Assembly: GCA_963774685.1 (NCBI GenBank)
Contig: CAVZFU010000005.1
Location: 1,081,538-1,145,537, forward strand
Source: an uncultured Alphaproteobacteria bacterium
GTDB taxonomy: Bacteria; Pseudomonadota; Alphaproteobacteria; Rhizobiales; Xanthobacteraceae
DNA: 64,000 bases
Reading direction: 5' to 3'
Shown here: positions 39,134 through 59,824 of the stretch, piece by piece
Numbering within the stretch: the stretch's first letter is position 1
Layout of the letters: the number at the start of each line of letters is the position of its first letter
The notes under the pieces: model-generated
Databases searched by the model: none
The model's input: only the letters and a program-made list of their open reading frames with translations
Told to the model about the DNA's origin: nothing
Position numbers and translations under genes: made by a program

Positions 39134-39222
39134 GCGCCTGCAACAGAAACGGCCGGGCGGCGAAGGTCGCTGCCGGCTTCTTCAAGGCTTTCGAAATAGG
39201 CTTTGTGAGTGGGGGATTGGTT

Positions 39223-40131
39223 ATGGCTGACGTACCGGCACGGAAGAAGGTCACCATCAACACCTTGATGGCGAAGATGAAGAAGGGCGAGCCGATCACC
39301 CAGCTTGCCGCGTACGATTATCGCACTGCGGTCGTTGCCGACCGCCTTGGCATGGATATCCTGTGCGTATCCGATACCGGCGGCATGATCCTGTTCGGCC
39401 ACAAGAGCACCGTCTCGGTGAGCTTCGACGAAGTCATGATGATGTCGAAGGCGATCGACCGCGGCTCCAAATACGGGCTGCGCATGGTCGACATGCCGTA
39501 TTGGAGCTTCCACGTCTCGCCGGAACAGGCGGTGGCCAATGCCGGCCGCTTCGTGCACGAAGCCAATGCCGAAGTGATGAAATGCGAGGGAAACAAGCAT
39601 CACGCCAGGAATATCGAGGCGATCGTGCGCGCCGGGATCCCGGTGCAGGGCCACATCGGCATCACTCCGATGCGGATGCCGCAGCTTGGCGGCTTCGTCG
39701 CCCAGGGCAAGACCGCCCAGCGCGCCAAGGAGATGGTGGAAGACGCCAAGGCGATGGTCGATGCCGGCTGCTTCTCGATCCTGTGCGAGGTCACGACGTC
39801 TGAAGTTGCCGAATATCTGGCGCAGACGCTGCCGGTGCCGGTCATCAGCCTCGGCGCGGGCAATGCCGCGCATGGCGTTCACATCATATCTTCGGATCTG
39901 TTCCATCTCTGGGAAGAGCATGTTCCGCGCCACTCGCGGATCTACACCGATCTGATCCCGATCATGGAAGACGTCATCTCGCGCTATATGAAGGATGTCG
40001 TTACCCGCAACTATCCCGGTCCGAAGGAAACCGTCTTCATGAGCCCGGAAGAGTGTCTGCTGTTCGCCCAGGACATGAAGTGGGAACGCAAGGTCGATGA
40101 ATTGAGGTCGGTGGCCAAAAAAACCGCCTGA
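39223..40131 (+). CDS. panB: Divergent 3-methyl-2-oxobutanoate hydroxymethyltransferase (PanB)-like, copy 1
   Basis: AAYD, VSDTGGM, VDMPY, KCEG, GHIGITP, GGFVAQGK, LCEV, GAG; no panC nearby. Confidence 0.8.
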   Translation: MADVPARKKVTINTLMAKMKKGEPITQLAAYDYRTAVVADRLGMDILCVSDTGGMILFGHKSTVSVSFDEVMMMSKAIDRGSKYGLRMVDMPYWSFHVSPEQAVANAGRFVHEANAEVMKCEGNKHHARNIEAIVRAGIPVQGHIGITPMRMPQLGGFVAQGKTAQRAKEMVEDAKAMVDAGCFSILCEVTTSEVAEYLAQTLPVPVISLGAGNAAHGVHIISSDLFHLWEEHVPRHSRIYTDLIPIMEDVISRYMKDVVTRNYPGPKETVFMSPEECLLFAQDMKWERKVDELRSVAKKTA

Positions 40132-43964: not shown

Positions 43965-44786
43965 TCAGTCTTCGTTGAGCCAGGGCGTCATCCATTTGCC
44001 CAGCTTTCGCAGCGCCGCGCTGGAAATGTAGCCGGCAACGCCGATGCTGATCATGCCGGCGACGATTTGGGTGTATGATCCGCCCACGTAGGAATTCCAG
44101 ATAAAGAAGCCGAGCCCGCCGCCGGCGCCGCTGCCGCCGCCGGAAATCATTTCGGCGGCGACCACCACGGCCCAGGTGATGCCGACGCCGACCGTGGCGC
44201 CGACGGCCATCGACGGCAGGGTTGCCGGCAGAATGATGCGCCGGAAAATGTCCCAGGTGGATGAGCCCATCGAGCGAGCCGCCTGGAAATAGCGCACGTC
44301 AATCGCCTGGGCACCGCCGATCACATTGATGACGATGGTGAAGAACGCCCCGAGGAACGTCACGAACGCGATTGAGAGTTCCTGGGTAGGCCAGAAAATG
44401 ATCGACGCGGGAACCCAGGCCAGCGGCGGGATCGGTCGCAGCACCTCGAAAACCGGAAACGTGATTCCATAGAAGGTTCTGCTGACGGCCATGGCGAGGC
44501 CGAGCGGTATGCCGATCACCATCGCGGCGAAAAACCCTTCGAATACCCGCAAGGTGCTGAGAAGCGCGCTCTGCCAGAAGCTGGCTTCGTGAAACAGCGT
44601 GAACAGCTCCCGCATCACCGCGACCGGCGGCGGTATCTGGGAGATCCAGGGCAACGCAAACCCGAACCAGCTCAGCGAGCGCGATCCGGTTTCCCAGAAC
44701 ATCAGAAAAGCCAGGATCGCGACGATACCTCGCCAGAAATCCTCGCCGGTCACGAATCCGCCCGCCTTCAGGGACCAATTCATCAT
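43965..44786 (-). CDS. ABC permease (MsmH-like)
   Basis: LRPIPPLAWVP, AARSMG, VVAAEM. Confidence 0.88.
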   Translation of the reverse strand: MMNWSLKAGGFVTGEDFWRGIVAILAFLMFWETGSRSLSWFGFALPWISQIPPPVAVMRELFTLFHEASFWQSALLSTLRVFEGFFAAMVIGIPLGLAMAVSRTFYGITFPVFEVLRPIPPLAWVPASIIFWPTQELSIAFVTFLGAFFTIVINVIGGAQAIDVRYFQAARSMGSSTWDIFRRIILPATLPSMAVGATVGVGITWAVVVAAEMISGGGSGAGGGLGFFIWNSYVGGSYTQIVAGMISIGVAGYISSAALRKLGKWMTPWLNED

Positions 44787-45682
44787 CAGCGCTCCTTCTC
44801 GCCGGCGGCAAACGCCTTGATCGCTTCTTCGTGGACCGCGGCCGCGGTTTCGTCCATGAACTCGCGGAACCGCTTTGTCGTCAGCACCCCATAGTCCCGC
44901 GGATGCGGAATATCGATGTCGAGTATCTTCTTCGGCCGGCAGGGCCGGCTCGTCATGATCACGACGCGGTGGCCGAGAAAGATCGCTTCTTCCAGGTCGT
45001 GCGTAATGAAGAAGATGGTGACGCGATTCTTGTAGAAGATCTCGAGCAGGGCCTCGTGCATCACCGACTTGGTGAGCGAATCAAGCGCGCGATAGGGTTC
45101 GTCGAGCAACAACACCTTGGGGTCCGTCATCAGCGCGCGTACGATCTCGACCCGGCGGCGAACGCCGGACGAAGTTTCGCCGGGATAATCGCTTTCGATG
45201 TCGCGCAGCCCGGCATCCGCCATCATGTAACGGGCCTTATCGTATGCTTCGGCCTTGGTCATGGTTCCCTGCATGATCGGTCCGAAGGCCACGTTTTCGA
45301 TATTGGTCTTCCACGGAAACAGCGCGCCGTTCTGGAAGACAACGATCCGATCCGGGCCGGGCTCGGCCTGGAGCTTGCCGGGGCCGCACAGCATCTGGTC
45401 GTCGAGATAAATGCTGCCGGACGACAGGCTGTGAAAACCGGCGATGGCATTGAGAAGTGTCGTTTTGCCGCAACCGGAGGGGCCGACCACGACGGTGATT
45501 TCCCCGGGCGGGACGTCGAATGTGCAGTGGTCGACCGCCAGAATGCCGCCGCCTTGCGTGCCGTAGGTCTTGACCGCGTCGACGATGCGAACGCCGCCTT
45601 TGCGCACGATCTCGGGATGTGTCGCAGGCCATGGGCCTTGCGCCGGGGAGGCGCCCGGGGGTGCCGATGGCTGGATGTTCAT
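44786..45682 (-). CDS. ABC ATP-binding subunit (MsmG-like)
   Basis: GPSGCGKTT; signature TSSGVRRR; LLDEPY; ITHDLEEA. Confidence 0.88.
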   Translation of the reverse strand: MNIQPSAPPGASPAQGPWPATHPEIVRKGGVRIVDAVKTYGTQGGGILAVDHCTFDVPPGEITVVVGPSGCGKTTLLNAIAGFHSLSSGSIYLDDQMLCGPGKLQAEPGPDRIVVFQNGALFPWKTNIENVAFGPIMQGTMTKAEAYDKARYMMADAGLRDIESDYPGETSSGVRRRVEIVRALMTDPKVLLLDEPYRALDSLTKSVMHEALLEIFYKNRVTIFFITHDLEEAIFLGHRVVIMTSRPCRPKKILDIDIPHPRDYGVLTTKRFREFMDETAAAVHEEAIKAFAAGEKER

Positions 45683-46596
45683 CTGTCTGCTCCGAGCGCG
45701 AGTTCTCGGGTGCGCCATTGCATCATGTAGTCGCCGAGCATGCGGATCGCGGCACTGGTGAGGTATCCGACGAGTCCAAGCGTTGCCATCGCGATGACGA
45801 TCGTCGGATAGCGAACCATCGTGTAGGAGGTGTTGATGAGGTAGCCCAAGCCGTACTGCCCGGAGACCATTTCACCGGCGACGAGCGAGAACCACGCCAC
45901 GCCGATTGAAATCTGCAACCCGGTGAAAATGAACGGCAACGCCGCCGGCACGATGACTTGGCGGAAGACCTGCCAGCGGTTGGCGCCGAGACAGCTTGCC
46001 GCCCGAATATAGGACACGTCGATGGATTCGACGCCGAGCATGGTGTTGAGCGCGGTCGCGTAGAACGATGCCAGGAAGGTCAGGAAAATGACCGGCGTTT
46101 CGGATCCCTGGAACATGACGATCGCGAGCGGCACCCATGCCAGCGGCGGCACCGGCCGCAGCAATTCGAAAACCGGAAAGACATACTGCTTGAACCGTTG
46201 CGACCAGCCGAGAAACAGCCCGAGCGGGACGCCGATCGCGGTGGCGAGAAAGAACGCTATCGCAATGCGCCGCGTGCTCACCCAGATGTGGAGGTAGTAT
46301 TCGGGGGTGAAGACCGACAGGCCGTAGACCGGATTCCGGCTGAACCATTCACGCAGGACCGCGGTCGGTCCGGGCATCTCGGCGAAGCGAGGCAGCTTCC
46401 ACACTTCCACGGCGAAGTACCAGAAGCCGAGAAACAGAGTGAATCCGATCAGCATCAGGTACGGCCGCGGGCTTCGCAGCCAAAGCGACAAGCGATACAT
46501 CGCGACCGCCAGTGGCGTCTGCTTGCGCGAAGGATGGCTGCCCGTTGCCGGCCCCGCGTTAAGTCCTGGAATGTCAGACGCCGCTGTTTCGCTCAT
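45679..46596 (-). CDS. ABC permease (MsmF-like)
   Basis: LRPVPPLAWVP, AASCLGA, LVAGEM. Confidence 0.88.
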   Translation of the reverse strand: MSETAASDIPGLNAGPATGSHPSRKQTPLAVAMYRLSLWLRSPRPYLMLIGFTLFLGFWYFAVEVWKLPRFAEMPGPTAVLREWFSRNPVYGLSVFTPEYYLHIWVSTRRIAIAFFLATAIGVPLGLFLGWSQRFKQYVFPVFELLRPVPPLAWVPLAIVMFQGSETPVIFLTFLASFYATALNTMLGVESIDVSYIRAASCLGANRWQVFRQVIVPAALPFIFTGLQISIGVAWFSLVAGEMVSGQYGLGYLINTSYTMVRYPTIVIAMATLGLVGYLTSAAIRMLGDYMMQWRTRELALGADR

Positions 46597-46670
46597 ATAG
46601 CTTGTCCTGCTGTAACTAGCCTTGGTCGTGTCCGCTCCGGTTCAGGAGGCTCGCAGAGAACTTGATCTGG

Positions 46671-46728
46671 CGTTTGCCGGGCGGGCGCTTTCTGTCGCGG
46701 CGGATTCCAGCAACCCGCCCGGCAAACG
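46671..46728. other. Intercistronic stem-loop after the binding-protein gene
   Basis: CGTTTGCCGGGCGGG ... CCCGCCCGGCAAACG, a 15-bp perfect inverted repeat. Confidence 0.7.
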
Positions 46729-46732
46729 ACGT

Positions 46733-47911
46733 TCATTTGTCGGTGTACATCTCAACCGGAAGCGCCTTGACCTGCCCCACCGGAGCTTTCAGGCCATGCG
46801 CCTTGAGAATTTCGTCGGTAAATTGCGGTACGACCGCTTCGGGCCGGATTTCCGCCTGGATGCTCTTGATTTCGACCAGGAATTTGGAGGCCTTTTGAAT
46901 CAGCTCATTCGCCTCAGGGGTAAATCCGTAAGGCAGCGTGATACGGATATCGGTGCCGCCCTCGGATGCCGGCGTCTGCCCGAATGCCGACGACCACAGC
47001 GCCTTCTCGGTGAAGCCGGTGGTCTGGCTGGTGGCCATCCTTGCGACATCCATCGCATTCTTGGGATCGACGAAATACTGAGCGGCATCGAGCTCGGCCT
47101 CAAGCCACGCCTTGACGACGTCGGGCCGCTGCTCGATCAGGGCTTGCGGCATCACCATGAAGCCTCCATCGCGCTCGTTGACCGAGACGCCGGACGCAAC
47201 CCTGCGTGCAAGCCCCTCCTGAACGAGGCGCGACGCCGTCGGCTCCCAGATTACGGCGGCGTCCAGTTTGCCGGCGCGCAAGCCGCTGGTGATGACCTCG
47301 ATGCTTTGATTGAGGTATTCCGATGGCGTGATTCCGCGTTCCTTGAACACGGCCTGTGCGAACCGGTCGGTGCAGCTTCCTTTCGGAACCGCGACAATCT
47401 TGCCGTTCAGCCACTTCAACGCTTCATCGGGTGTCTTGAACTGCGGCGCGTCGGGGCGGGTCAGAAAGATATTGCATTGGTCGAAGCCGAGGCCGAGCAC
47501 GGAGACGATGCGGACGTCACGGACTTCCGGATGGCTGGTGGAAACAATCCCGGGCATGTCGCCGACGTAGCCAACGTCGACCTTTCCGGCGAGCATTCCG
47601 TTGACGATAATCGCGCCCTGCAGGCCGATCTGGAAGCTGACATTAGAGCCCTTGGGCAAGTATTTCTCATAGAACTTCTTGTCCCGCATGATCATGCCGG
47701 TCCATGATTCCGTGTAATACGGCTGGTAGCCGATCACGAGTTCGATCGGTTCCCCCGGTTTGCCGTATGCCTTTGACGCGGCCGCGTTAGCGGGCCCGGT
47801 GCCGGCGACAAGCGCCCCGATTGACCACAAACCGGCCAGCAAAAGGCCGAGTGCCCATCCTGATGTCGCAGAGCGCGCGGCGCGTGCGGCTCCCTGGTGC
47901 TTATGTTGCAT
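46733..47911 (-). CDS. ABC substrate-binding protein (MsmE/SsuA-like)
   Basis: Signal peptide; IGYQPY; GKVDVGYVGDMP; GKIVAVPKGS; AAVIWEP. Confidence 0.85.
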   Translation of the reverse strand: MQHKHQGAARAARSATSGWALGLLLAGLWSIGALVAGTGPANAAASKAYGKPGEPIELVIGYQPYYTESWTGMIMRDKKFYEKYLPKGSNVSFQIGLQGAIIVNGMLAGKVDVGYVGDMPGIVSTSHPEVRDVRIVSVLGLGFDQCNIFLTRPDAPQFKTPDEALKWLNGKIVAVPKGSCTDRFAQAVFKERGITPSEYLNQSIEVITSGLRAGKLDAAVIWEPTASRLVQEGLARRVASGVSVNERDGGFMVMPQALIEQRPDVVKAWLEAELDAAQYFVDPKNAMDVARMATSQTTGFTEKALWSSAFGQTPASEGGTDIRITLPYGFTPEANELIQKASKFLVEIKSIQAEIRPEAVVPQFTDEILKAHGLKAPVGQVKALPVEMYTDK

Positions 47912-48094
47912 TGCAAACTCCCCCTGGGTCTTTTGTGTTAAGTGTTGAAACTCTTTGGTTTCTTCGATTGTATCAGTTTGGTTGTTTGTATTTATCCAAT
48001 GCCTTACGTGTCTTGCTCTCGCTCCAAGTTCCAAACCGATCACAGCATGCCAGCACGGCTCATTTGGGAGAAAATCGTTCCTCCAAATGACTCG

Positions 48095-48109
48095 ATAGAG
48101 CAAACCTAT
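48095..48109. promoter_or_regulatory. Perfect LysR-type box between the divergent ABC and msm operons
   Basis: ATAG-AGCAAAC-CTAT (T-N11-A dyad). Confidence 0.6.
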
Positions 48110-48292
48110 GTTTTGGATTTGCGCAAGAGTTTGGTTCAGCCGATGCGTTCGGAATGCGTCCAAACGCGCCTGATCCGAGTTGCCTCCAAAGCTTCAGTCT
48201 ATTGTTAGATAACGAGTTTCGATTGCAGCCTATCTAGCGTTGATGACGCCACGGCTCGTATTGTACGGGTCGTAAGGTCAGCAGAACCTTCA

Positions 48293-49564
48293 ATGATTAC
48301 AGGAGCGAGCGCTGTGGCAGCGAAAAATCATGCGCAATGGCTTTCGGAACCCAATTTGCAGCAGAATGAATGGGTCGATAGCCGGATCTACTCCGACCCG
48401 CAGATCTTCGAAGAAGAAATCGAGAAGATCTTTTCCAAGACCTGGGTTCCCGTCTGTCACGAATCCGAACTGCCGAACGCATACGACTTCCGAACCATGT
48501 CGATCGCGCGCGAACCGGTGATCGTGTGTCGTGGTCCCGACAACGAGGTTCGTGCGTTCCTCAACGTCTGCCCGCATCGCGGCATGATCATCGAGCGCCG
48601 GCCGTCGGGCAGCTTTCTCGAAGGCCAGCCGTCGGGAAATCCGAAGCGGATGACCTGCATGTTCCATGCGTGGCAATACGATATGCGCGGCAATTGCGTC
48701 TATATCAGCCGCGAGAAGGAGGGTTTCCAGGATCGGCTTTGCAAGGAAGACGTCGGGCTGCGCCGGCTGCGCTGCGAGGTGAAGTTCGGCGGCTTCGTCT
48801 GGGTCAACCTGGACGACAATCCGAAGGTGTCGCTGGAGGACTGGGCGGCGCCCGCCTTTAACTGCCTGCGCAAGACGCTCGACGCCGAGCCGATGGAGGT
48901 TTTTCACTATCACAAGGCGATCGTGAACGCGAACTACAAGCTGTGGCATGACACCAACTGTGAATTCTATCACGACTTCATGCACTACCATAACCGCGTC
49001 ACCGGCTTTAACGACGCGTACTTCGCGCGCAAGAACGAATCGTTCGAGCACGGCCACATCGTCGTCGGCACGTTTGAGGTCAATTACGAGAAATACGAAG
49101 GCTTCGACAGCCGCGCGGCGCTCTCGTTCCCGCATCTGCCGCCGAACCAGTGGTACATGATCGATCTGTTCCCAGGCATGAACTTCAATCTGCGCGGTTC
49201 GGCGCTACGTTGCGACATCGTGACGCCGCTCGGTCCGGACAAGATGATGATCGAATTCCGCGGCCTCGGGCTGAAGCGCGATACGCCGGAAGAGCGGCAG
49301 ACCCGCATCAACCACCACAATTCGATCTGGGGTCCGTTCGGCCGCAATCTGCACGAAGATCTGATCGGCGTGCAGGGGCAGGGCACCACGATGCAGACCG
49401 GGTCGGAGCCGCGGAGAATTCTTCACGGCCGTCATGAGAACCAGACCATTCATGACGAGAACGGCATGCGGCACTATTACGAAGAGTGGGGCCGCTGGAT
49501 GAACAGAATGCCCAACCATCCCGACCAGTCGTACTCCGGGGCCGCTTCGATTGCCGCGGAGTAG
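48293..49564 (+). CDS. msmA: Methanesulfonate monooxygenase hydroxylase alpha subunit
   Basis: Rieske motif CPH-X26-CMFH; the 26-residue spacer is the described hallmark of MsmA. Also NYKLWHDTNCEFYHDFMH (mononuclear Fe ligands). The start could be GTG at 48314. Confidence 0.9.
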   Translation: MITGASAVAAKNHAQWLSEPNLQQNEWVDSRIYSDPQIFEEEIEKIFSKTWVPVCHESELPNAYDFRTMSIAREPVIVCRGPDNEVRAFLNVCPHRGMIIERRPSGSFLEGQPSGNPKRMTCMFHAWQYDMRGNCVYISREKEGFQDRLCKEDVGLRRLRCEVKFGGFVWVNLDDNPKVSLEDWAAPAFNCLRKTLDAEPMEVFHYHKAIVNANYKLWHDTNCEFYHDFMHYHNRVTGFNDAYFARKNESFEHGHIVVGTFEVNYEKYEGFDSRAALSFPHLPPNQWYMIDLFPGMNFNLRGSALRCDIVTPLGPDKMMIEFRGLGLKRDTPEERQTRINHHNSIWGPFGRNLHEDLIGVQGQGTTMQTGSEPRRILHGRHENQTIHDENGMRHYYEEWGRWMNRMPNHPDQSYSGAASIAAE

Positions 49565-49679
49565 CCGATGTGTCCCCGGCCGGGCGAGGCACGGCCGGGT
49601 TTCATGATCTGCCAGCGCGTCGCTCGTCTGCGCGGTGACGCCGGTTGCCCGGCCTCTGACGACCAAATGGGGATTAGCT

Positions 49680-50160
49680 GTGGACGTCTACGCTCTCGTT
49701 CGTGACACTGTTTACCGGTCGACCATTCTGCTCGATCAGCAGGACTGGAACGGCTGGCTGGCGCATTGCGACGACCAGTTTCAGTATGCCATCCGTGCAT
49801 GGAGTCCGGAAATCAACAAGGACGTGACGTATCTCTCGCATGACCTGAAAGGTCTCGCGAGCATGGTCAAGCTATTGCCCAAGCATAATACCGATCATTC
49901 GCCGCTGACCCGGCATACGTCGCTCTATACCGTCGATGTCGATGAATCGACGCGCTCGGCCAGGTCGGTCAGTTCGGTCATCGTCTATCAAAACCTTCTC
50001 GACGGTATCAATTCCCACGTCGATGCCGGCGAGAGCCGCTTGTTCCTGGTGGGCAAATACATCGACACCTTCAGGATCGAGTAACAAGGCGACCTTTCTG
50101 AGCCGGGAGGTGCGGATCGAGAATCGTCGGCTGGACAAGGGCTCGCACTGGCCGATTTGA
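49680..50160 (+). CDS. msmB: Methanesulfonate monooxygenase beta subunit (apparent +1 frameshift at 50082)
   Basis: Ring-hydroxylating beta-subunit-like; frame 1 ends YIDTFRIE* and the next frame continues NKATFLSREVRIENRRLDKGSHWPI*. Confidence 0.8.
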
Positions 50161-50217
50161 TAGCGCTTGCGCGAACGCGCTGGCTTCGCGGAAGGCAACG
50201 GTGAAAGAAGTCGAGAA

Positions 50218-50580
50218 ATGACCTGGAAGCGCATATGCGGGTTGAGCGATGTCGCCGAGAACACCGTTAGGAAATTCGACATCGAGGGCATCCCGATCCT
50301 GCTGGTCAATTACGGCGGCGGCTACCGCGCCATCCCGCCGATTTGCCCGCACATGGAAGAACCGCTGGAGGAATCCGGCGTCGTCGTGCGCTGCATCCTG
50401 ACTTGCACCAAACATCTGTGGGCCTGGAAACTCGACACGCTCGAAATGCAGGGAGAGACCGAAAAACCGCTCAAGATCTATGAGACCAAACAGGAAGATG
50501 GTTCGATTCTCGTCAATGTCGAACAGGAACTGGTCTATGAATTCGACGAAGCCGCCGACGACGACGACTTTTTCAAATAG
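50218..50580 (+). CDS. msmC: Rieske ferredoxin
   Basis: CPHMEEPL...CTKH; acidic C-terminus. Confidence 0.85.
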   Translation: MTWKRICGLSDVAENTVRKFDIEGIPILLVNYGGGYRAIPPICPHMEEPLEESGVVVRCILTCTKHLWAWKLDTLEMQGETEKPLKIYETKQEDGSILVNVEQELVYEFDEAADDDDFFK

Positions 50581-50593
50581 CCGCGTCAACTCG

Positions 50594-51626
50594 ATGAAGA
50601 TTGCAGTTCAAAGCAGGAGCGGCGAAACCGCCTTCGAATGCGGAGATGGCGAAGCCATTCTGCACGCGGGATTGCGGCAAGGCATCAGCCTTCCCTATGA
50701 ATGCGCCACCGGTAGCTGCGGGACCTGCCGCGCCCGCGTGGTGAGTGGTGACGTCGACGTGCGCTGGAAGGAAGCGCCCGGTAGCGCACGGCTCAAGCCG
50801 GAAAAAGGCGACATCTTGATGTGCCAGACCAGGGCGCGATCGGATTGCGTCCTCAAGATTCCTTCGGATATCGGGATCGTGGAACAGCGTCCGGCGCCGC
50901 GCCGCGGCGTCATTTGCAATATTCAAAGATTGACCAGGGACGTGGCCCGGTTCGATATCCGTCTTTCGTCGCCGATGCGTTTTGAGGCCGGGCAGTTTGT
51001 CGTTGTCGACTCTTCCCGACCTCGCGGGCGCGCGCGCCTACTCGATGGTCAACTTCGATACCGAGGTAGATCTGATCGAACTGGTCCTCAAACGCAAGCC
51101 CGGCGGGCGATTTAGCGATTGGCTGTTCAGCGCCGGGCAGGAAGATCCGGAAGTCGCGGTATTCGGTCCGCTCGGCCGCGCCGTGTTTCGCCCGCACGAG
51201 GACAAGAACATCCTGTGCATCGCCGGCGGCTCGGGAATCGCCGGAATCATGTCGATCCTCGAATGCGCGGTTCAGGTCGATTACTTTCGCGATCACAAAG
51301 GCTCGGTGTTCTTCGGCGTGCGGACGCTGCAGGATGCCTTCTATCTGGAGGCATTCACCCGGTATGTCGCCTCATCGCACGGCAATCTCGAGGTCACGAT
51401 CGCTTTGTCCGATGAAGCCGCGACGGCCGGCTTTCATGCCGATTACCCGCTGCTGCGGCTCGCAGACGGCTTCGTTCACGAGGTCGCGGGTAAGGCGATG
51501 GCCGGCGAGGCCGGGGACGCGATCGCCTATGTGGCAGGGCCGCCGGTCATGGTGGACAGCGCCATTCGCGGGCTGATTATGTGCGGCATGCCCAGTCGGG
51601 ACATTCGATATGACAAGTTCGGTTAA
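50594..51626 (+). CDS. msmD: Oxygenase reductase, 2Fe-2S/FAD/NAD (apparent +1 frameshift near 51008)
   Basis: CATGSCGTC...C, RAYSM, GPLG, IAGGSGIAG, YVAGPPVMV, YDKF. Confidence 0.85.
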
Positions 51627-51646: not shown

Positions 51647-52414
51647 TTGATCCGGCGGGATGGCAGTCGGTGCGAGCGCTTGATCTCGATGGTCTTGCGC
51701 AAGGCGAGGGCGGAGACCCTCAATCTCATACAGTGGCTGGCCCGGGTCGCGAACAGTTACGTGCCTGCCGGTTTCCCAGAAGGGCGGCAGCAGCTCGAGT
51801 ACCGGGCCGCCACCGCGACCTTCCTCACCAGGCCTTTCGATAAGGACCTGACCCTCGCCTTGCAGATGCCGACTCTTGAAATGCAATTTCACGGGCACAG
51901 AAAGGCGGAGCCGCATATTTTCGATCCCGAAGAACGCTCGCCGGCGGAAGCCGAGGCGTGGCTGCTGGTCGAACTTCTGCATCGCGGAGTCGATACCGCA
52001 AGGTTCTCGAAAAAGCTGCCCTACGATATTCCCGGTTTGATGACCGGCGATGCCGCTGACCATTCGCCGCAATCGTGTCAACACGCCTTGACGCAATTGA
52101 CCGCCTGGTTTCGCAAGGCGGCAGCGATACTTGATGCCGCGGCCTGGACCTCGGACACCGAACAGACCTGCATTGTCTGCTGGCCGCAGACGCTCAGCCT
52201 CTCATGCGCGTCGAAGGGCGGATCGGCGCGCCCCGACATCGGATTTTCGCCGGGCGATGCGGATCACAACGAGCCGTATTTCTACCGGGGTCATCGGGCG
52301 AGCAACGGACCTGGGACTCGCAAGGGCCGCTCGATTTTGACGGCGTCGGAACTGCTGGCTGCCAGCGATCCGGCCGCCACGGCATTCGGCTTTCTGACCA
52401 CCGCGGCAACGTGA
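51647..52414 (+). CDS. Hypothetical protein, directly after msmD
   Basis: 255 aa ORF; C-terminal WP...GFSPGD..EPYFY is reminiscent of DUF5996-like proteins. The start is uncertain (ATG 51689 possible). Confidence 0.6.
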   Translation: MIRRDGSRCERLISMVLRKARAETLNLIQWLARVANSYVPAGFPEGRQQLEYRAATATFLTRPFDKDLTLALQMPTLEMQFHGHRKAEPHIFDPEERSPAEAEAWLLVELLHRGVDTARFSKKLPYDIPGLMTGDAADHSPQSCQHALTQLTAWFRKAAAILDAAAWTSDTEQTCIVCWPQTLSLSCASKGGSARPDIGFSPGDADHNEPYFYRGHRASNGPGTRKGRSILTASELLAASDPAATAFGFLTTAAT

Positions 52415-52431: not shown

Positions 52432-53403
52432 CTAGACCGCGGTTTTCCGATTCTTGATCGGCCCGTCATAGACGGTGGCGTGATCGCCCTCGATGCGTTT
52501 GCGCAATTCGCCCGACTTGTTCATCGTGCGCACGGCGGATATGAACGCACCAGCCATCGGCAACACGATCTCTCCTTCGGTCCAGAACAGGCCGACCTCC
52601 TGACTGACGGTCGGACTGATCAGCGGTATCGCGCGCGTTCCGCGATGCAGCCCGGGCGCGTGGGCGAAGTGCGATGGGATAATGGTGCAAAGCTCGGTGA
52701 ATTGAACCTGGAACATCAGGTGCAAAATCGATTCGGATTCGATTTGAGCCTCCGGCTTGCAGCCGACGCTGGCGAACACCTGGTCGACAAACCGGCGCTC
52801 ATGCATCGAGGGACGCAGCATCGCCAGCGGATACTTCGCTGCATCCTTCCAGGTGATGGTCTTGCGATTCTGGAATTCGGCCGTATCGGGAACCAGCAGG
52901 CTCAATTGCTCGGTGTAGATCGGCAAGGTGTTCTTGCGTCCGAGATCCGCCTTGTCGAGATAGGTCATCGCGACATCGAGCGCGAAATTGTTAAGTCCGA
53001 GCTTCATCGCCTCGTTGCCGATGAATTGCACGTCGACGCGCAGGCCGGGATATTTCTCCCGCAGGCCCTGCAGCATGAACGGCAGCACCGGCGACATCGA
53101 GGGCATCACACCCATGCGCAAATGGCCGGTCAGGTTATTCTTCATGACCTCGATTTCTTTACGCATCGCGTCACAATGCGCCAACACCGCACGCGACCAT
53201 ATCGCAACGCGCTCGCCTTCCGCCGTCAGCCCCTGAAAGCGCTGGCCGCGACCGCGCAGAAAGATCGGAACGCCAAGCTCCAGCTCCAATTGTGTTATGC
53301 CGCTGGAAAGGCTGGGTTGGGTGACGTTGCAGCGCTGGGCGGCGCGGCCGAAATGGCGTTCTTCCGCAACGGCAACCAGATAGCGAAATTGCCTGAGAAA
53401 CAT
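52432..53403 (-). CDS. LysR family regulator
   Basis: RQFRYLVAVAEERHFGRAAQRCNVTQPSLSSGITQLE. Confidence 0.95.
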   Translation of the reverse strand: MFLRQFRYLVAVAEERHFGRAAQRCNVTQPSLSSGITQLELELGVPIFLRGRGQRFQGLTAEGERVAIWSRAVLAHCDAMRKEIEVMKNNLTGHLRMGVMPSMSPVLPFMLQGLREKYPGLRVDVQFIGNEAMKLGLNNFALDVAMTYLDKADLGRKNTLPIYTEQLSLLVPDTAEFQNRKTITWKDAAKYPLAMLRPSMHERRFVDQVFASVGCKPEAQIESESILHLMFQVQFTELCTIIPSHFAHAPGLHRGTRAIPLISPTVSQEVGLFWTEGEIVLPMAGAFISAVRTMNKSGELRKRIEGDHATVYDGPIKNRKTAV

Positions 53404-53456: not shown

Positions 53457-53471
53457 ATAGACCAGATGTAT
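53457..53471. promoter_or_regulatory. LysR-type box between lysR and tauE
   Basis: ATAG-ACCAGAT-GTAT; a further ATAG at 53488. Confidence 0.5.
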
Positions 53472-53556: not shown

Positions 53557-54315
53557 GTGGCAATATCGAGTCTGATTTGGATATCGCTCCTGGGACTGAC
53601 TTCCGGCCTGATGATCGGATGCGTCGGCATTGGCGGCGTGATCCTGGTACCGGCGCTGGTGTTTCTTGCCGACATTCCGATCGAGACCAGCATTCCGGCG
53701 GCGCTGATGGCCTACGTGCTGCCCGGCCTCGTCGCGACAATCGTGTTTGCGCGTAACAAATCCATCCGTTGGGACATCGCGACATGGCTGTGCGTGGGCG
53801 CGGTGCCGACCGCGTTTGTCGGGGCGTGGGCGGTCAGCGTCGTCAATCCCCGATTACTGGAGGCGTGTCTCGGCCTTCTGACATTCCTGTCGGGCCTCAA
53901 TTCGCTAAGGACACAAAGCGCGGCCGGCAAACTCGAGTGCGTTCCGTCCAGCACGCGGCTGCTTGTCGTCGGAGCGGTGACCGGGTTTCTGTCGTCGATC
54001 ACCGGCACAGGGGGTCCCCTGGTGCTGGTGTCGATCGTCATTTCCATGAGCGTGCCGGTGCTGGTCGCGGTCGGGCTGAGCCAGGTGATTCAGCTTCCGG
54101 TGGCGATCGTCGCAACCTTCGGTAATCTGCTCTACGGACAGCTTGACTTTGAGTTGGGCGGCGTTCTGGCGGTGTCCTTGACCATCGGATCCTGGTACGG
54201 GGCAAAGCTTGTCCACGCCGTGCCGCGCACGACCTTGCACTGGATCGTATCGGTCGTGCTCGTGGTGGTAGGCGCTTTCATTCTTGGAAATGTCATTTGG
54301 CGGCTGTGGAAGTAA
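53557..54315 (+). CDS. TauE/SafE (TSUP) sulfite exporter family
   Basis: GCVGIGGVILVP and SITGTGGPLV internal repeat; about 8 TMs. Confidence 0.88.
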   Translation: MAISSLIWISLLGLTSGLMIGCVGIGGVILVPALVFLADIPIETSIPAALMAYVLPGLVATIVFARNKSIRWDIATWLCVGAVPTAFVGAWAVSVVNPRLLEACLGLLTFLSGLNSLRTQSAAGKLECVPSSTRLLVVGAVTGFLSSITGTGGPLVLVSIVISMSVPVLVAVGLSQVIQLPVAIVATFGNLLYGQLDFELGGVLAVSLTIGSWYGAKLVHAVPRTTLHWIVSVVLVVVGAFILGNVIWRLWK

Positions 54316-54318
54316 GCG

Positions 54319-55338
54319 ATGGCGCTGGAAGGATTTAAGCTTATCTACGATTTCGGCGACCCCGCAGCCGAGGCGAAGACATGCCGGACGGACTGTGCGC
54401 TGTTCGATTTCTCCTTCCTGGAATGTGCGCGGCTTGCCGGGAATCGCGCGTGCGACCTCATCGAGAGGTTCACCGGAAGGTCAATGGCCACGTTGAGGGA
54501 AAACGAGATATTTTATGCCTTGCGCGTTGATTCCGACGGCCGAATAACTGCCGATTGGACCGTGTGGAAGATCGCTGAGAATTCGTTCGATGTGATGAGC
54601 GGGCGCCGCGAGGATATTCTGGATTTGCTCGCGTGCTCCGGTCCGGGCGTTGCCGTCGTCGACATGACGGCGGATCGAGCGACGTTCGCGCTGCAGGGTC
54701 CCCGTGCGCTGGATATGTTGCGCAAACTCGGCGACGTCGGTCACATCGGCTCGCTCAAATACTTCACGTTCGACCACGCCCGTCTTGCGGGCATTCCCTG
54801 CACGATTGGTCGGCTCGGCTATACCGGGGAGCCCGGCTTCGAGATCATCGCAGAGCAGGGGAAAGCGCGCGATCTGTGGGACGCATTGTCCGCCCGTGTC
54901 GCCGCCGCGGGATTCATTGCGGCCGATATCCTGCGCATCGAGGCTGGCTTTATTCTGTTCAGCAATGAGTTCCGGCTACCCGTGTCGCCCTCTGAAGTCG
55001 GTCTTGGGAAATTCAGCCGTCCCGTCGATCCGCTTGAACCCGCCATAAAGCTGGTCTCGTTCCTCGCCGATGCGCAACCCCAGTCGTGGCCCTGGCGGCC
55101 GTCGCGCGACCTGCAGCGGCCCTCCGGGCTCGGGGCAATCGCGGTGACGTCGGCCTGCCAAAGCGTTGCGGCCGGCGGAATTCTCGGTCTTGGCTATGTC
55201 CTCGCCGAAGCATCGCCCGACACGGTTCTGCGCGATGAAGCAGGCAACTTCCGCAATATTCGTTTGGCGCCGAGGCCATTTTACGACACCGCAAAACAAC
55301 GTCCTCGCGAGCCCTGGCAGCAATCAGGCGACCGGTAA
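54319..55338 (+). CDS. Stand-alone GcvT-like folate-binding aminomethyltransferase family protein
   Basis: ALFDFS, GRITAD, FALQGPRA, RLGYTGEPGFEI, LRIEAG; no gcvH/P in the window. Confidence 0.85.
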   Translation: MALEGFKLIYDFGDPAAEAKTCRTDCALFDFSFLECARLAGNRACDLIERFTGRSMATLRENEIFYALRVDSDGRITADWTVWKIAENSFDVMSGRREDILDLLACSGPGVAVVDMTADRATFALQGPRALDMLRKLGDVGHIGSLKYFTFDHARLAGIPCTIGRLGYTGEPGFEIIAEQGKARDLWDALSARVAAAGFIAADILRIEAGFILFSNEFRLPVSPSEVGLGKFSRPVDPLEPAIKLVSFLADAQPQSWPWRPSRDLQRPSGLGAIAVTSACQSVAAGGILGLGYVLAEASPDTVLRDEAGNFRNIRLAPRPFYDTAKQRPREPWQQSGDR

Positions 55339-55414: not shown

Positions 55415-55576
55415 GTTCCCGCAAACGAGAAGCGGCGGATTGGCGTTCACCGCTGCCGGGTTCTGCAAGACCATTTGGAGCGATTGCTACCTCGAAAACT
55501 CCCAATCCCCGCTGACGATGTCGCCGAGGACGATGGTTTCGCCATGCGGAGCTATGGCATTGAGAGACCGCCGCCC

Positions 55577-56458
55577 ATGACGATGGAATCGCGCGCGCAG
55601 CGAAACTCGACAGCAAACTGCGTCTCGTCATTGATGCAGGATCTTTCCATAGAGGCCACGCTGCCAAACCAAATGGAATTGGAGTCGCTGCGCGACATCC
55701 TTCCCTCTACGACTCAGATCTTTGTTGCAGCTCCACCGGGTCGTCCGTATTTGCGGCTGGTAGAAACGGCAATACAAATTCGCAAAGCCGGTTTTGAACC
55801 GGTTCCGCATATCGCGGCCCGAAATTATGAATCTCTGAAAGCCCTCGGCGACTTCGTCGCGCGGATATGCGGCGAATCCGGTGCGCGACGGGTTTTGGTA
55901 ATTGCCGGCGATGTCGATCGCCCGGCGGGACCATTTTTGGGGGCCAACGCGGTCATCGAGAGTGATCTCCTGCAGCGCTACGGAATTCGCGAGATCGGGG
56001 TCTCCGGATACCCGGACGGCCATCCGAAGCTAAGCGACGCAATTGTAATCGGTGCTCTGAGACGAAAGCTGAATTCGGCAAAGGAGAGAAATCTAAAGGT
56101 AACAATTGTCTCTCAACTGTGTTTTGACGCGGACCAAATCACCGCTTGGGTGAAGTCGTTGCGGAGCTCGGGCATCAGTGTGCCAGTTAGTATCGGTCTC
56201 GCAGGGCCGACAAGCATCAGAGGACTGGCGCGTTTTGCCTTAATGTGCGGTGTGCGCAATTCTTTCAAGGCATTTGTCGACGGCAAGACAAGTCAACTCT
56301 TCGGCGAAGCGTCGCCGGGCGACATCATCCATGACCTCAGCGAAGCCCTCGATCTATCGATGCCGGGGCAAATTTCCCTGCACCTCTACGCGTACGGCGG
56401 TCTGGTCCGAACGGTGAACTGGGCAAAGGATTTTCAAACTCGTTTCGGGGACGTTTAG
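55577..56458 (+). CDS. metF: Methylenetetrahydrofolate reductase-like
   Basis: PVPHIAAR, VIAGD, SGYPDGHP, SQLCFD, GLAGP, LHLYAYGG. Confidence 0.85.
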   Translation: MTMESRAQRNSTANCVSSLMQDLSIEATLPNQMELESLRDILPSTTQIFVAAPPGRPYLRLVETAIQIRKAGFEPVPHIAARNYESLKALGDFVARICGESGARRVLVIAGDVDRPAGPFLGANAVIESDLLQRYGIREIGVSGYPDGHPKLSDAIVIGALRRKLNSAKERNLKVTIVSQLCFDADQITAWVKSLRSSGISVPVSIGLAGPTSIRGLARFALMCGVRNSFKAFVDGKTSQLFGEASPGDIIHDLSEALDLSMPGQISLHLYAYGGLVRTVNWAKDFQTRFGDV

Positions 56459-56490: not shown

Positions 56491-57569
56491 GCCAACGCGC
56501 CGATGATAGCCGAGGGCAACTATATGATAGTTTTTGCATATTTGACGGACCGGATGCGGTAGCGCTCCATGCGCCTGCAACTGAAACGGCCGGGCGGCGA
56601 AGGTCGCTGCCGGCTTCTTCAAGGCTTTCGAAAACTAGGCTTGTGAGTGGGGGATTGGTTATGGCTGACGTACCGGCACGGAAGAAGGTCACCATCAACA
56701 CCTTGATGGCGAAGATGAAGAAGGGCGAACCGATCACCCAGCTTGCCGCGTACGATTATCGCACTGCGGTCGTTGCCGACCGCCTTGGCATGGATATCCT
56801 GTGCGTATCCGATACCGGCGGCATGATCCTGTTCGGCCACAAGAGCACCGTCTCGGTGAGCTTCGACGAAGTCATGATGATGTCGAAGGCGATCGACCGC
56901 GGCTCCAAATACGGGCTGCGCATGGTCGACATGCCGTATTGGAGCTTCCACGTCTCGCCGGAACAGGCGGTGGCCAATGCCGGCCGCTTCGTGCACGAAG
57001 CCAATGCCGAAGTGATGAAATGCGAGGGAAACAAGCATCACGCCAGGAATATCGAGGCGATCGTGCGCGCCGGGATCCCGGTGCAGGGCCACATCGGCAT
57101 CACGCCGATGCGGATGCCGCAGCTTGGCGGCTTCGTCGCCCAGGGCAAGACCGCCCAGCGCGCCAAGGAGATGGTGGAAGACGCCAAGGCGATGGTCGAT
57201 GCCGGCTGCTTCTCGATCCTGTGCGAGGTCACGACGTCTGAAGTTGCCGAATATCTGGCGCAGACGCTGCCGGTGCCGGTCATCAGCCTCGGCGCGGGCA
57301 ATGCCGCGCATGGCGTTCACATCATATCTTCGGATCTGTTCCATCTCTGGGAAGAGCATGTTCCGCGCCACTCGCGGATCTACACCGATCTGATCCCGAT
57401 CATGGAAGACGTCATCTCGCGCTATATGAAGGATGTCGTTACCCGCAACTATCCCGGTCCGAAGGAAACCGTCTTCATGAGCCCGGAAGAGTGTCTGCTG
57501 TTCGCCCAGGACATGAAGTGGGAGCGCAAGGTCGATGAATTGAGGTCGGTGGCCAAAAAAACCGCCTGA
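56491..57569 (+). repeat. Direct repeat copy 2 (panB-like gene plus promoter)
   Basis: See copy 1; LysR-type boxes at 56506 and 56527, TTGACG at 56542. Confidence 0.95.
56661..57569 (+). CDS. panB: Divergent PanB-like, copy 2
   Basis: Translation is identical to copy 1 from MADVPARKK onward. Confidence 0.8.
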   Translation: MADVPARKKVTINTLMAKMKKGEPITQLAAYDYRTAVVADRLGMDILCVSDTGGMILFGHKSTVSVSFDEVMMMSKAIDRGSKYGLRMVDMPYWSFHVSPEQAVANAGRFVHEANAEVMKCEGNKHHARNIEAIVRAGIPVQGHIGITPMRMPQLGGFVAQGKTAQRAKEMVEDAKAMVDAGCFSILCEVTTSEVAEYLAQTLPVPVISLGAGNAAHGVHIISSDLFHLWEEHVPRHSRIYTDLIPIMEDVISRYMKDVVTRNYPGPKETVFMSPEECLLFAQDMKWERKVDELRSVAKKTA

Positions 57570-57646
57570 GTTACGGTGGCGCATGAAGCCGCGCCAACAA
57601 GCAACTCTGACGTTCTGACGGAATAAGAAAAATTTTGGGAGAAGCA

Positions 57647-59071
57647 ATGGATCTCGCGGTCATTCATAACGGTGTGGCCGCTCCTGCGGCCAGCGAAGCG
57701 GTGCGGCTCAACATTCCAGGGCGGCTCGAGCGCTTGCCGATGACGGCGTATCAAAAGCGGATGTTTGCGATTGTTGCCACCGCGTGGCTCGCCGATCAGG
57801 TGGACGTTGCGCTGCTGGTATTTCTGGTCGGCGCTCTTAAAAACTATTTCAATCTTACGGCAGTGCAGATCGGTTTTCTTTCGTCGATGACCTTCCTCGG
57901 CCAGCTCGTCGGCAATCTGCTGATTGGCTCGATCTCCGACCTGTACGGCCGTCGCATAGCTTTTCAAAGCACGATGGTGATTTGGGGCGTTGCGAGCTTC
58001 CTGGCCGCGGGTGCGTGGGACGTCACCTCGCTCATGGTGTTCCGTTTCCTCATTGGAGTCGGTGTTGGTGGCGAAGCGCCGGTCGCGCAGGCTGTTCTGT
58101 CGGAGATTATTCCCGCGAATGTGCGTGCAAAATATATCGCATTTATGGAGGGATTTTGGGCGGTCGGCTTCGTCATCTCCGGCACGATCGCCTATACGGT
58201 GCTGCCCTACGCCGGGTGGCGTTGGGTTTTCGTGGTGGTCGGCATGTTCTCGTTGGTGGTATTTTGGGTGCGCCGCAGTTTGCTCGAATCGCCACGCTGG
58301 TTAGCGGATCATGGTCGGTACGCCGAAGCAGAGCAGGTCATGTCCGAGATCGAGGCCGGCGTTCAGAAAGCCAGCGGGGTCAAGCTCGCAGCAGCCAAGC
58401 CATTTCTTGCAGAAACCTCGCTCGAGACCCGAAATCCGCTCGGCGTGTTGTTTTCGCGGTTCTATCTGCGCGCCAATACCATGATCTTCAGCGTATGGTT
58501 TTTTGCGCTGCTCGGCTATTTCGGCCTGACGTCATGGCTCGGCATTATTCTGGGCGAGCATGGATTTTCTATCGTGACGTCGATTGGATTCATAACCCTG
58601 ATCACGCTCGGCGGTATTCCAGGGTTTTATAGTGCTGCCTTGCTGCTGGAGCGGATCGGGCGAAAGCCGACCACTGCCGTGTTTCTCTTCGCAAGCGCCT
58701 TGATGGCCTATGTGTATGGTCACGCGACGAATGACGTGATGTTGTTCTGCAGCGGCTTCGTCATGCAGTTCTTCATGTTCGGAATGTGGTCTTGCCTTTA
58801 TGCCTATACACCCGAGCTCTATCCAACGCGGGCGCGGTCGACTGCGGCCGGGATGGCGTCTGCCTTTGGTCGATTGGGTGCGATAACCGGGCCGATTGTG
58901 GTCGGCTATATTATCAGCTCGGTTGGCGCGACCGGCGTGTTTACATTGGGCGCCATGAGTTTCGTGATCGCCGCACTTATCGTGCTGATTCTCGGCATCG
59001 AGACCAGGGGCCGTACGCTGGAAGAGATTTGCCGCGAAGAGGAAGTGGTTGGTCTGCATTCAGCGGCTTAG
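57647..59071 (+). CDS. MFS transporter (organic acid / sugar-porter-like)
   Basis: RLERLP, SDLYGRR, ESPRWL, ELYPTRARSTAAG, IETRGRTLE. Confidence 0.9.
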   Translation: MDLAVIHNGVAAPAASEAVRLNIPGRLERLPMTAYQKRMFAIVATAWLADQVDVALLVFLVGALKNYFNLTAVQIGFLSSMTFLGQLVGNLLIGSISDLYGRRIAFQSTMVIWGVASFLAAGAWDVTSLMVFRFLIGVGVGGEAPVAQAVLSEIIPANVRAKYIAFMEGFWAVGFVISGTIAYTVLPYAGWRWVFVVVGMFSLVVFWVRRSLLESPRWLADHGRYAEAEQVMSEIEAGVQKASGVKLAAAKPFLAETSLETRNPLGVLFSRFYLRANTMIFSVWFFALLGYFGLTSWLGIILGEHGFSIVTSIGFITLITLGGIPGFYSAALLLERIGRKPTTAVFLFASALMAYVYGHATNDVMLFCSGFVMQFFMFGMWSCLYAYTPELYPTRARSTAAGMASAFGRLGAITGPIVVGYIISSVGATGVFTLGAMSFVIAALIVLILGIETRGRTLEEICREEEVVGLHSAA

Positions 59072-59125: not shown

Positions 59126-59824
59126 ATGATCGACAAAGACGACGTTGACAAGGAGCGGGCCTTGCCTGTTCGCGTCACTGATGAAGTCGATCCTGCGGTT
59201 TCAGGTATTTACGCAGAGGATGGCGCCGCCAATCATCGGGATGTGATGCAGTGGCGAAAGGCGGAGAGGGCCCGATTAATCGACGAACGACTTCAGGTTA
59301 GCGCCGATACACGCAAGAAAAACTCCGATTTCATCGCAGGGCACCTCGACGTGGCGATTGGTGATCCATGCGGGCGCGTCGTGAGTGGATATTGGCCGTT
59401 CCGCGGCGAGCCCGATTTGCGTGAATGGCTCGAAGGCCTGGAAGGCCGCGGCGGCCGATGTGCGTTGCCAGTGGTTATTGAGGCGAAAGCGCCCCTGGTC
59501 TTCCGCATCTGGAAACGGGGCGAGAAGCTGGAGCGAGGTGTGTGGGACATTCCCGTGCCAGCCGCCGGGGAAGAGGTGTGCCCGGACGTCGTCATTGCAC
59601 CGATCGTTGGCTATGATCGAGATGCATACAGGCTTGGGTATGGTGGCGGATATTTCGACAGGACACTCGCCGTCATGCAGAAGCGGCCGCTGGTCATCGG
59701 TGTTGGGTACAGCCACGCCGCAATACCGACAATCTACCCCAAGCTACATGATATTCCGATGGACAAGATTGTGACGGAACGGGGGATTGTTCTTCCTGCG
59801 AGGAGCAGGGCGCAATGCAGTTAG
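59126..59824 (+). CDS. 5-formyltetrahydrofolate cyclo-ligase
   Basis: YWPFRGEPDL, IAPIVGYD...RLGYGGGYFDRTL, HDIPMDKIVTE. Confidence 0.92.
   Translation: MIDKDDVDKERALPVRVTDEVDPAVSGIYAEDGAANHRDVMQWRKAERARLIDERLQVSADTRKKNSDFIAGHLDVAIGDPCGRVVSGYWPFRGEPDLREWLEGLEGRGGRCALPVVIEAKAPLVFRIWKRGEKLERGVWDIPVPAAGEEVCPDVVIAPIVGYDRDAYRLGYGGGYFDRTLAVMQKRPLVIGVGYSHAAIPTIYPKLHDIPMDKIVTERGIVLPARSRAQCS

Follow-up and report, generated by a model that had tools for sequence, protein, structure and literature searches.

Gene organization of the gcvTL locus

The window analyzed here, a 64-kb stretch of DNA (64,000 nt) from an uncultured alphaproteobacterium of the family Xanthobacteraceae (contig CAVZFU010000005.1; source genome G000), carries an island of genes for methanesulfonate monooxygenase (MSAMO), the msm genes. 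Within the island lies a gene coding for a stand-alone protein of the GcvT superfamily, designated GcvTL. The gene and its upstream neighbours are arranged as follows.

52432..53403, minus strand: lysR, divergent LysR-type regulator (Pfam HTH_1 and LysR_substrate)
53557..54315, plus strand: tauE, TauE/SafE (TSUP) membrane protein, putative sulfite exporter (Pfam TauE, 5.7e-38)
54319..55338, plus strand: gcvTL, 339-aa stand-alone GcvT-superfamily protein (Pfam GCV_T, 3.9e-47)

The open reading frame (ORF) coordinates and the Pfam matches confirmed the 3-nt spacing of tauE and gcvTL and the divergent orientation of lysR, both reported in a first-pass annotation of this DNA. The lack of glycine-cleavage H or P partners, also reported there, was borne out: no GcvH or GcvP was found in the 64-kb window, and the sole GcvH match of the genome (C3:268342-268617) is located on another contig, directly 3' of a canonical gcvT (C3:267212-267962). 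The junction between tauE and gcvTL reads TAA-gcg-ATG, with GGAAG placed 8 nt 5' of the ATG. A metagenome scan gave 283 relatives, of which the best 80 loci (51-74% identity) were kept. The tight spacing of tauE and gcvTL is not due to chance, because the gap stays between -1 and 36 nt in all 63 of these loci with sufficient upstream sequence. The lysR gene was present, with approximately 80% identity, in 38 of the 38 metagenome loci with adequate flank. Export of sulfite by TauE is a putative function, deduced from the family name alone.

Fold, residues and family membership of GcvTL

Residues 9-231 of GcvTL matched Pfam PF01571 (GCV_T) with 161.1 bits (cut-off 25.6), and no GCV_T_C match was returned by the Pfam scan. 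The AF2 model (pLDDT 85.1) displayed the complete three-domain T-protein fold, including the C-terminal barrel. In Foldseek searches the model aligned with 1YX2 and 1WOO over 340-344 columns (E ~1e-25, TM 0.79-0.80); the TM scores were 0.61 for the YgfZ structures 1VLY/1NRK and 0.51-0.57 for IBA57.

GcvTL scored under the NCBIfam cut-offs for GcvT (TIGR00528, 99.4 bits with a cut-off of 235.85; PRK00389, 132 with 300; PRK13579, 98.7 with 459), for Tdm (107 bits with 1100) and for the demethylases DmdA (NF009133, 70.1 bits with 410), LigM (NF047885, 27.1 with 580) and DesA (NF047633, 25.9 with 800). As judged from these profiles, it is above the cut-off for none of the GcvT, Tdm, DmdA and LigM models and is predicted to belong to no named family. 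In the maximum-likelihood tree, for which the DmmD, Tdm and GcvT reference sequences were taken from a plasmid collection, the GcvTL family formed a separate clade with 100/100 support and a long branch (1.13). The other clades comprised DmmD with the C-terminal domain of Tdm (Tdm-C) and an MttB-linked protein, the true GcvT proteins, and the DMGDH/SoxA group; DmdA was judged by its NCBIfam score, the tree having contained no DmdA sequence. A weak search among longer proteins revealed no fused form of the GcvTL clade.

Residues D79, Y168, E171 and E175 of GcvTL were invariant in 35 of 35 family members. D79 aligned with D552 of dimethylglycine oxidase (DMGO) and D96 of the Thermotoga T protein, and Y168/E175 with Y188/E195, so that the protein keeps the catalytic Asp and the folate-binding Tyr and Glu of the YTGE.G.E motif. 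The remaining T-protein signatures were altered: FDVSHMG to FDFSF, YTGEDG to YTGE(P/A/R)G, GLGARD to GFIAAD, and TSG to TSAC, with the replacement of the His, Asp, Arg and Gly, respectively. DmmD, Tdm and the DMGDH group likewise have these four positions replaced. Each of the four true GcvTs aligned retained the His and the Asp as well as the TSG Gly, and three of them the Arg, the Rhodococcus GcvT having GLACRD. Given the lost signatures and the canonical gcvT-gcvH pair on C3, GcvTL is probably not a glycine-cleavage T protein.

R54 and F199 of GcvTL were common only to DmmD and Tdm. The positions invariant in the GcvTL clade alone (F31, F33, W83, W259, C280, F311 and W333) are mostly aromatic or small residues. 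Three cysteines, C22, C161 and C280, were invariant within the family; C22 and C161 occur also in ordinary GcvT or Tdm sequences.

Linkage of gcvTL to the msm genes and its distribution

The msm genes and the conserved gene that follows them, orf255, precede lysR in the window.

48293..51626, plus strand: msmABCD, MSAMO (Pfam), comprising MsmA (48293-49564), MsmB (49635-50084), Rieske ferredoxin (50167-50580) and reductase MsmD (50594-51620)
51689..52414, plus strand: orf255, conserved gene after msmD (no Pfam match; AF2 pLDDT 87.5)

The msmA product carries the CXH-X26-CXXH spacing, described as the MsmA hallmark by Henriques and De Marco (PMC4433239).

A family-level sample of 201 genomes, the source genome included, was searched for GcvTL (E <=1e-40) and MsmA (>=60% identity). 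GcvTL was encoded in eight genomes and MsmA in seven, the source genome being counted in both. In all seven MsmA genomes gcvTL was located on the same contig, and the module lysR<->(tauE)-gcvTL-panBL (panBL coding for a PanB-like protein, see below) adjoined msmABCD. The eighth GcvTL genome, G047, had the module but encoded no MsmA (the best match reached 31%); a frameshift interrupts gcvTL there in the middle of the gene. At this locus (L024, G047:C39:68000-80028) a DASS-family transporter gene, orf255, lysR, tauE, gcvTL and panBL were observed; the gcvTL frame was lost after the GRLGYT motif and regained later, and panBL was intact (88%). The G047 module resembles what is left of an msm island in decay. 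The idea of hydroxymethanesulfonate import, suggested by the DASS transporter and orf255 beside a module that lacks msmA, was dropped, as gcvTL is frameshifted and the locus is likely such a remnant.

The neighbourhoods were read from the sampled genomes and the metagenome loci; 120 database homologues of GcvTL were also collected. Among the best 80 of the 283 metagenome loci, wherever the flank permitted, tauE was placed directly upstream of gcvTL (63/63) and panBL downstream (64/64), and msmA (23/23) and orf255 (32/32) accompanied them.

An order-level sample, screened by GcvTL so that genomes with msmA only lie outside its count, added three gcvTL genomes from two other families. Two of them had lysR<->gcvTL-panBL beside msmABCD without tauE. 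In the third, G963, the order was orf255-lysR<->tauE-gcvTL-panBL followed by a cytochrome c gene, and msmA (80% identity) was placed on a separate contig. Thus orf255 adjoined the module also in G047 and G963. Outside the source genome, the module was found in 10 sampled genomes from three families and in one metagenome-assembled genome (MAG); in G155, G603 and G661 tauE has been lost from it while gcvTL-panBL persisted. A scan of genome contigs with GcvTL alone led to two loci. No close relative of GcvTL was detected in the plasmid collection, every match being below 34% identity, and a class-level sample contained GcvTL in none of its 400 other genomes. One alphaproteobacterium of another family in this last sample (G376) carries MsmA (74% identity) and MsmB on a 2.4-kb contig (G376:C240:1-2400, L130). 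Many DMGDH/SoxA-type GcvT-domain proteins are also encoded in this genome.

Genes downstream of gcvTL

The next two genes after gcvTL are on the same strand, and the second of them has another copy upstream of the msm genes.

55475..56458, plus strand: MTHFR-like gene between gcvTL and panBL-2 (weak MTHFR match, E 1.2e-9, 38 bits)
56658..57569, plus strand: panBL-2, divergent ketopantoate hydroxymethyltransferase paralogue (Pfam Pantoate_transf, 273.7 bits)
39205..40131, plus strand: panBL-1, second copy, within a 1,080-bp direct repeat

The conserved partner of gcvTL, overlooked in the first-pass annotation, is the divergent, deep PanB paralogue. The panBL-2 ORF opens at 56460, M67 being its likely start. 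PanBL is 33% identical to canonical PanB as opposed to 78-93% among the msm islands, where its conservation is second only to that of MsmA. Besides panBL, two canonical panB genes are present in other msm genomes; in the source genome no canonical panB was found, just the two island copies.

The MTHFR-like gene, which the first-pass annotation had listed as an adjacent metF, likely starts near 55577, and a 293-aa form of its product is on record. The canonical metF of the genome lies elsewhere (C5:262445-263294). None of the 80 metagenome loci and none of the 11 genome or MAG loci fetched had the MTHFR-like gene; homologues with 67-79% identity were present in Bradyrhizobium sp. Ash2021 and NP1, both of which encode close GcvTL homologues. 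The gene was inserted late between gcvTL and panBL.

Formaldehyde pathways in the source genome

Two island genes code for enzymes of the tetrahydrofolate (THF)-linked oxidation of C1 units.

40276-41973, plus strand: ftfL (Pfam FTHFS, 905.7 bits)
42081-42989, minus strand: folD (Pfam THF_DHG_CYH and THF_DHG_CYH_C)

Fae and Mch of the tetrahydromethanopterin (H4MPT) route were not found in the source genome, which is 92.7% complete, and no glutathione-dependent formaldehyde dehydrogenase scored above the cut-off in it (best 310 bits vs 544), which leaves the folate route as the only one found for formaldehyde in the host. Formaldehyde and THF condense spontaneously at a rate too slow to sustain growth (PMC7073904). 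For a methanesulfonate (MSA) user reliant on that route, the step from formaldehyde to methylene-THF consequently requires a catalyst.

The genome appears to encode a DmmD-like protein in addition to GcvTL. At G000:C3:766549-767247 (L002), near sarcosine-oxidase genes, there is a 416-aa open frame that grouped with DmmD of Ponticoccus (100/99).

Putative regulatory boxes in the island

The motif ATAG-N7-VTAT, resembling a binding box of a LysR-type transcriptional regulator (LTTR), occurred at five sites in the window where 0.61 would be expected, a count reached in none of 100 shuffles.

39090, 48095, 53457, 55371 and 56527: ATAG-N7-VTAT boxes, every one in an island spacer
53457..53471, plus strand: LTTR-like box ATAG-N7-GTAT in the lysR-tauE spacer, one of the five sites

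The boxes are situated in the msmE/msmA, lysR/tauE and gcvTL/MTHFR-like spacers and upstream of both panBL copies. In related loci the strict box was found in 46 of 70 gcvTL-panBL spacers, in 8 of 19 msmE-msmA spacers and in 1 of 55 lysR-tauE spacers; among the 47 distinct lysR-tauE spacers compared, a relaxed form, AATAG...TTA, was kept in 70% or more. The shared putative boxes are consistent with a single LysR regulon, and their distribution suggests that panBL may have its own LysR-dependent promoter.

Comparison of GcvTL with known systems

Recruitment of the GcvT fold for trapping formaldehyde released by an oxygenase or demethylase is already known in kind. DmmD, a stand-alone GcvT protein encoded by the dimethylamine monooxygenase locus, was proposed to conjugate formaldehyde to THF, and the dmmDABC cluster is known in Ruegeria pomeroyi, Methylocella and Paracoccus (PMC5520151). 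GcvTL resembles DmmD in being a free-standing GcvT fold (340-380 aa) placed beside a formaldehyde-releasing oxygenase in hosts dependent on the THF route. Both have the R54 and F199 residues, both are devoid of the T-protein His, Asp and Arg, and the Ponticoccus DmmD was the best pairwise named match of GcvTL (35% identity over the N-terminal 220 aa). The two differ in phylogeny, GcvTL forming its own clade whereas DmmD groups with the 416-aa protein of the source genome (own416), the MttB-linked protein and Tdm-C. They differ also in their partners, which are DmmABC for DmmD and a Rieske sulfonate monooxygenase, TauE and the PanB paralogue for GcvTL.

The C-terminal GcvT domain of Tdm has been demonstrated to convert channelled formaldehyde into methylene-THF (PMC13619132). 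GcvTL is 29% identical to it over 356 aa and shares its C-terminal YD..K.RPR motif, and the Ponticoccus Tdm cluster carries ftfL and folD, as does the msm island. The Tdm domain, however, is fused to the catalytic domain and supplied through an internal tunnel, whereas GcvTL is a separate protein. A similar distinction applies to DMGO, DMGDH and the sarcosine oxidase alpha subunit SoxA (1PJ5, 4PAB, 1VRQ), whose folate domains trap the C1 unit of oxidative demethylation as methylene-THF. Besides D552 of DMGO, which aligned with D79, they have the C-terminal PFYD...R.R motif in common with GcvTL; unlike GcvTL, these domains are fused to flavoprotein domains, belong to a separate clade and do not conserve Q126 (QGP). 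With GcvT itself (1YX2, 1WOO, 1VLO, 3A8I) GcvTL shares the three-domain fold, the catalytic Asp and the folate-binding Tyr/Glu, and differs from it in the low identity (~22-25%), the scores below curated cut-offs, the four changed signatures and the absence of an H or P neighbour.

The adjacency of lysR, tauE, gcvT and panB is already on record, which the first-pass annotation overlooked. In 2015, lysR, tauE, a "glycine cleavage system protein T" and panB were tabulated beside msm in Candidatus Filomicrobium marinum strain Y (PMC4433239, Table 1), in the same gene order and with the same sizes as here (GcvT ~332 aa, PanB ~303 aa). G963 has the Filomicrobium-type layout, with the cytochrome c gene after panBL, and its GcvTL shows 45-48% identity. 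The genes were labelled "methylotrophic metabolism" and "C1-moiety transfer" in that paper, which put forward neither a clade nor a residue analysis, a distribution or a function (PMC4433239), and our literature search found no paper assigning a function to the GcvTL adjacency. New variations seen here are the GcvTL clade, its pairing with a Rieske sulfonate oxygenase, its co-translation with TauE and the PanB paralogue.

Proposed function of GcvTL and alternative explanations

Among the atmospheric oxidation products of dimethylsulfide MSA is a major one, and its degradation in the textbook pathway ends at MSAMO with the production of formaldehyde and sulfite. Soil-type msm islands almost always hold, in addition, a dedicated clade of the GcvT superfamily, a homologue of sulfite exporters and a deep PanB paralogue. 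In view of the fold, the retained residues, the clade identity, the gene linkage and the pathway context established above, we consider it probable that GcvTL is a THF-dependent enzyme, dedicated to MSA catabolism, that makes methylene-THF from MSAMO-derived formaldehyde. This reading is favoured because of the linkage to msm, the kept folate and catalytic residues and the lost T-protein signatures, and because folD and ftfL lie in the island, no H4MPT or glutathione route was found, and DmmD and Tdm provide precedents. The enrichment of LTTR-like boxes in the island spacers was also counted in its favour. The formaldehyde-scavenger function proposed in the first-pass annotation is the one favoured here, as a prediction; the argument for a demethylase, which the annotation drew from the adjacent metF, does not stand, the gene being absent from the metagenome, genome and MAG loci.

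In the proposed scheme, MSA would be hydroxylated by MsmABCD, with the release of sulfite and of a C1 unit that is at the level of formaldehyde. THF would be bound in the T-protein-type cavity of GcvTL and condensed with formaldehyde, either free or handed over by the oxygenase, with the use of Asp79, to give 5,10-methylene-THF. The C1 unit would then be oxidized by the island FolD and FtfL or assimilated, and the sulfite removed by TauE, so that one LysR-controlled transcript would dispose of both reactive products, formaldehyde and sulfite. The binding of THF, the substrate and the product are predictions, as is any contact of GcvTL with MsmAB or with the PanB-like partner. A small stand-alone catalyst of the formaldehyde-to-THF step would close a gap in methylotrophy on MSA and be a useful component for synthetic methylotrophy, and the GcvTL clade, DmmD and Tdm offer a clean comparison of the repeated recruitment of the GcvT fold for formaldehyde trapping.

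Several observations weigh against this assignment. The invariant PanB-like partner plays no part in the scheme. The MSAMO product may be a stable adduct, hydroxymethanesulfonate (HMS), and not free formaldehyde. Neither a GcvTL-clade nor a PanBL-type gene was found in the 98%-complete assembly of G376. Since this genome has MsmA, the module is not obligatory for MSAMO, and some msm lineages may treat formaldehyde by other means; the GcvTL module is closely tied to msm, yet not universal. The linkage loci are not independent events because they are mostly related islands of the Hyphomicrobiales type. Finally, few genes of the island evolve as fast as gcvTL (median identity 53.5% vs 89% for msmA), which fits an accessory role and also a looser constraint; synonymous sites are saturated at these distances.

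The nature of the MSAMO product and the constancy of panBL each give rise to another explanation. In the first of these, HMS (HOCH2SO3-), the formaldehyde-bisulfite adduct, would be the initial hydroxylation product of MSA. The substrate of T protein is an X-CH2-S compound, aminomethyl-S-lipoyl, whose thiolate is displaced by THF. GcvTL might analogously split HMS, with THF attacking the methylene carbon and sulfite leaving, to produce methylene-THF and sulfite, the latter destined for TauE; the T-protein reaction already displaces sulfur at such a carbon. HMS is kinetically stable, with a lifetime of ~1 week at pH 5 and of between a day and a few hours at pH 6 (PMC7685164), hence long-lived below neutral pH. 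It is also tight, with a dissociation constant of ~2e-4 M above the bisulfite pKa (PMC6459274), and the MSAMO products should therefore stay or re-associate as HMS at catabolic flux. The conserved tight tauE-gcvTL junction (63/63) would suit a sulfite-releasing enzyme, but tauE is absent from the module in G155, G603 and G661, which retain gcvTL-panBL. Moreover, no clade-specific Arg or Lys for sulfonate binding was found, R54 being common to DmmD and Tdm, and none of the papers in the library searched linked HMS to MSAMO. Altogether, an HMS:THF methylene-transferase that releases sulfite without free formaldehyde, possibly together with the PanB-like partner, seems unlikely to us. If real, it would be a C-S bond cleavage of a new kind and supply an enzymatic step that the textbook MSA pathway lacks, and would point to biological turnover of atmospheric HMS. 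PanB chemistry uses methylene-THF, and GcvTL and PanBL might act as a two-step hydroxymethyl relay from formaldehyde through methylene-THF to a 2-oxo acid, or in reverse, as a route of assimilation or a carrier route and not as plain detoxification. The presence of panBL after gcvTL in 64 of 64 loci, and its retention where tauE was lost, speak for such a relay, as do the depth of the paralogue (33% identity to canonical PanB, 78-93% among islands), the two canonical panB genes that other msm genomes hold besides it, and its own conserved LTTR-like box in 46 of 70 spacers. No conserved downstream aminotransferase or reductase gene was seen, however, and a relay extends the formaldehyde-capture explanation without replacing it; we find it rather doubtful.

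Two further explanations draw on the superfamily to which GcvTL belongs. DmdA and LigM are members of it, and GcvTL could be a THF-dependent demethylase of their type, acting on a methyl-sulfur or other methylated compound, with the resulting 5-methyl-THF oxidized by the MTHFR-like neighbour. That gene does follow gcvTL in the window and in the closest relatives, but as a late insertion missing from the 80 metagenome and 11 genome or MAG loci it lends little support to a demethylase. GcvTL scored far under the DmdA, LigM and DesA cut-offs, the sole conserved catabolic enzyme of the island releases C1 at the formaldehyde level, and neither a conserved transporter nor a conserved enzyme acting on another substrate was found in the island; this function is highly improbable. 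The GcvT fold, the Rieske and ferredoxin clusters of MSAMO and the invariant C22, C161 and C280 could also indicate that GcvTL is a spare T protein of glycine cleavage or that, as a folate protein resembling YgfZ/IBA57, it maintains the Fe-S clusters of MSAMO. The loss of the T-protein signatures and the lack of adjacent H and P genes argue against the former. The TM scores (0.51-0.61 for YgfZ/IBA57 vs 0.79-0.80 for T proteins), the genome's own weak YgfZ-like match elsewhere (C4:98856) and the occurrence of C22 and C161 in ordinary GcvT or Tdm sequences argue against the latter, and we regard this pair of roles as the least probable of those weighed here.

Other features of the msm island

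The island further contains an importer cluster conserved across related loci and a lineage-specific tail.

43965..48163, minus strand: msmEFGH-type ABC importer, divergent from msmA (Pfam NMT1, BPD_transp_1 and ABC_tran)
57635-59071, plus strand: MFS transporter, cluster tail (Pfam/NCBIfam)
59126-59824, plus strand: 5-formyl-THF cyclo-ligase, cluster tail (Pfam/NCBIfam)

The cyclo-ligase gene followed panBL in merely 2 of the 80 metagenome loci.

The reductase gene msmD falls into two frames, the break lying near 50982-51034 within a GC-repeat stretch, and its orthologue in L018 is an intact 350-aa ORF. The canonical gcvT and metF of the genome are likewise split in two frames, and assembly indels are a more likely cause of the three splits than three pseudogenes.

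The orf255 model had no PDB match by Foldseek. VIA-align found its two halves weakly similar to frataxin/CyaY and Nqo15 (Z 5.2-5.4, under the safe level), and the ESM features pointed to DUF5996. As a lead only, the product might serve the oxygenase as an iron or assembly factor.

The direct repeat, with one panBL copy in each unit, extends over 1,080 bp (39054-40131 and 56491-57569; 99.4% identity). The two units bracket 17.4 kb of DNA with ftfL, folD, msmEFGH, msmABCD, orf255, lysR, tauE, gcvTL and the MTHFR-like gene, which could be amplified or excised through recombination. Upstream of the island (window 35960-38501) trehalose-related genes were noted, coding for a trehalose-phosphatase and a GT20 otsA-like protein. 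In G047 (L024, 159-3448) GH15 trehalase-like and GT20 genes were situated upstream of the module, and the trehalose-gene flank in both genomes may mark a shared insertion site.

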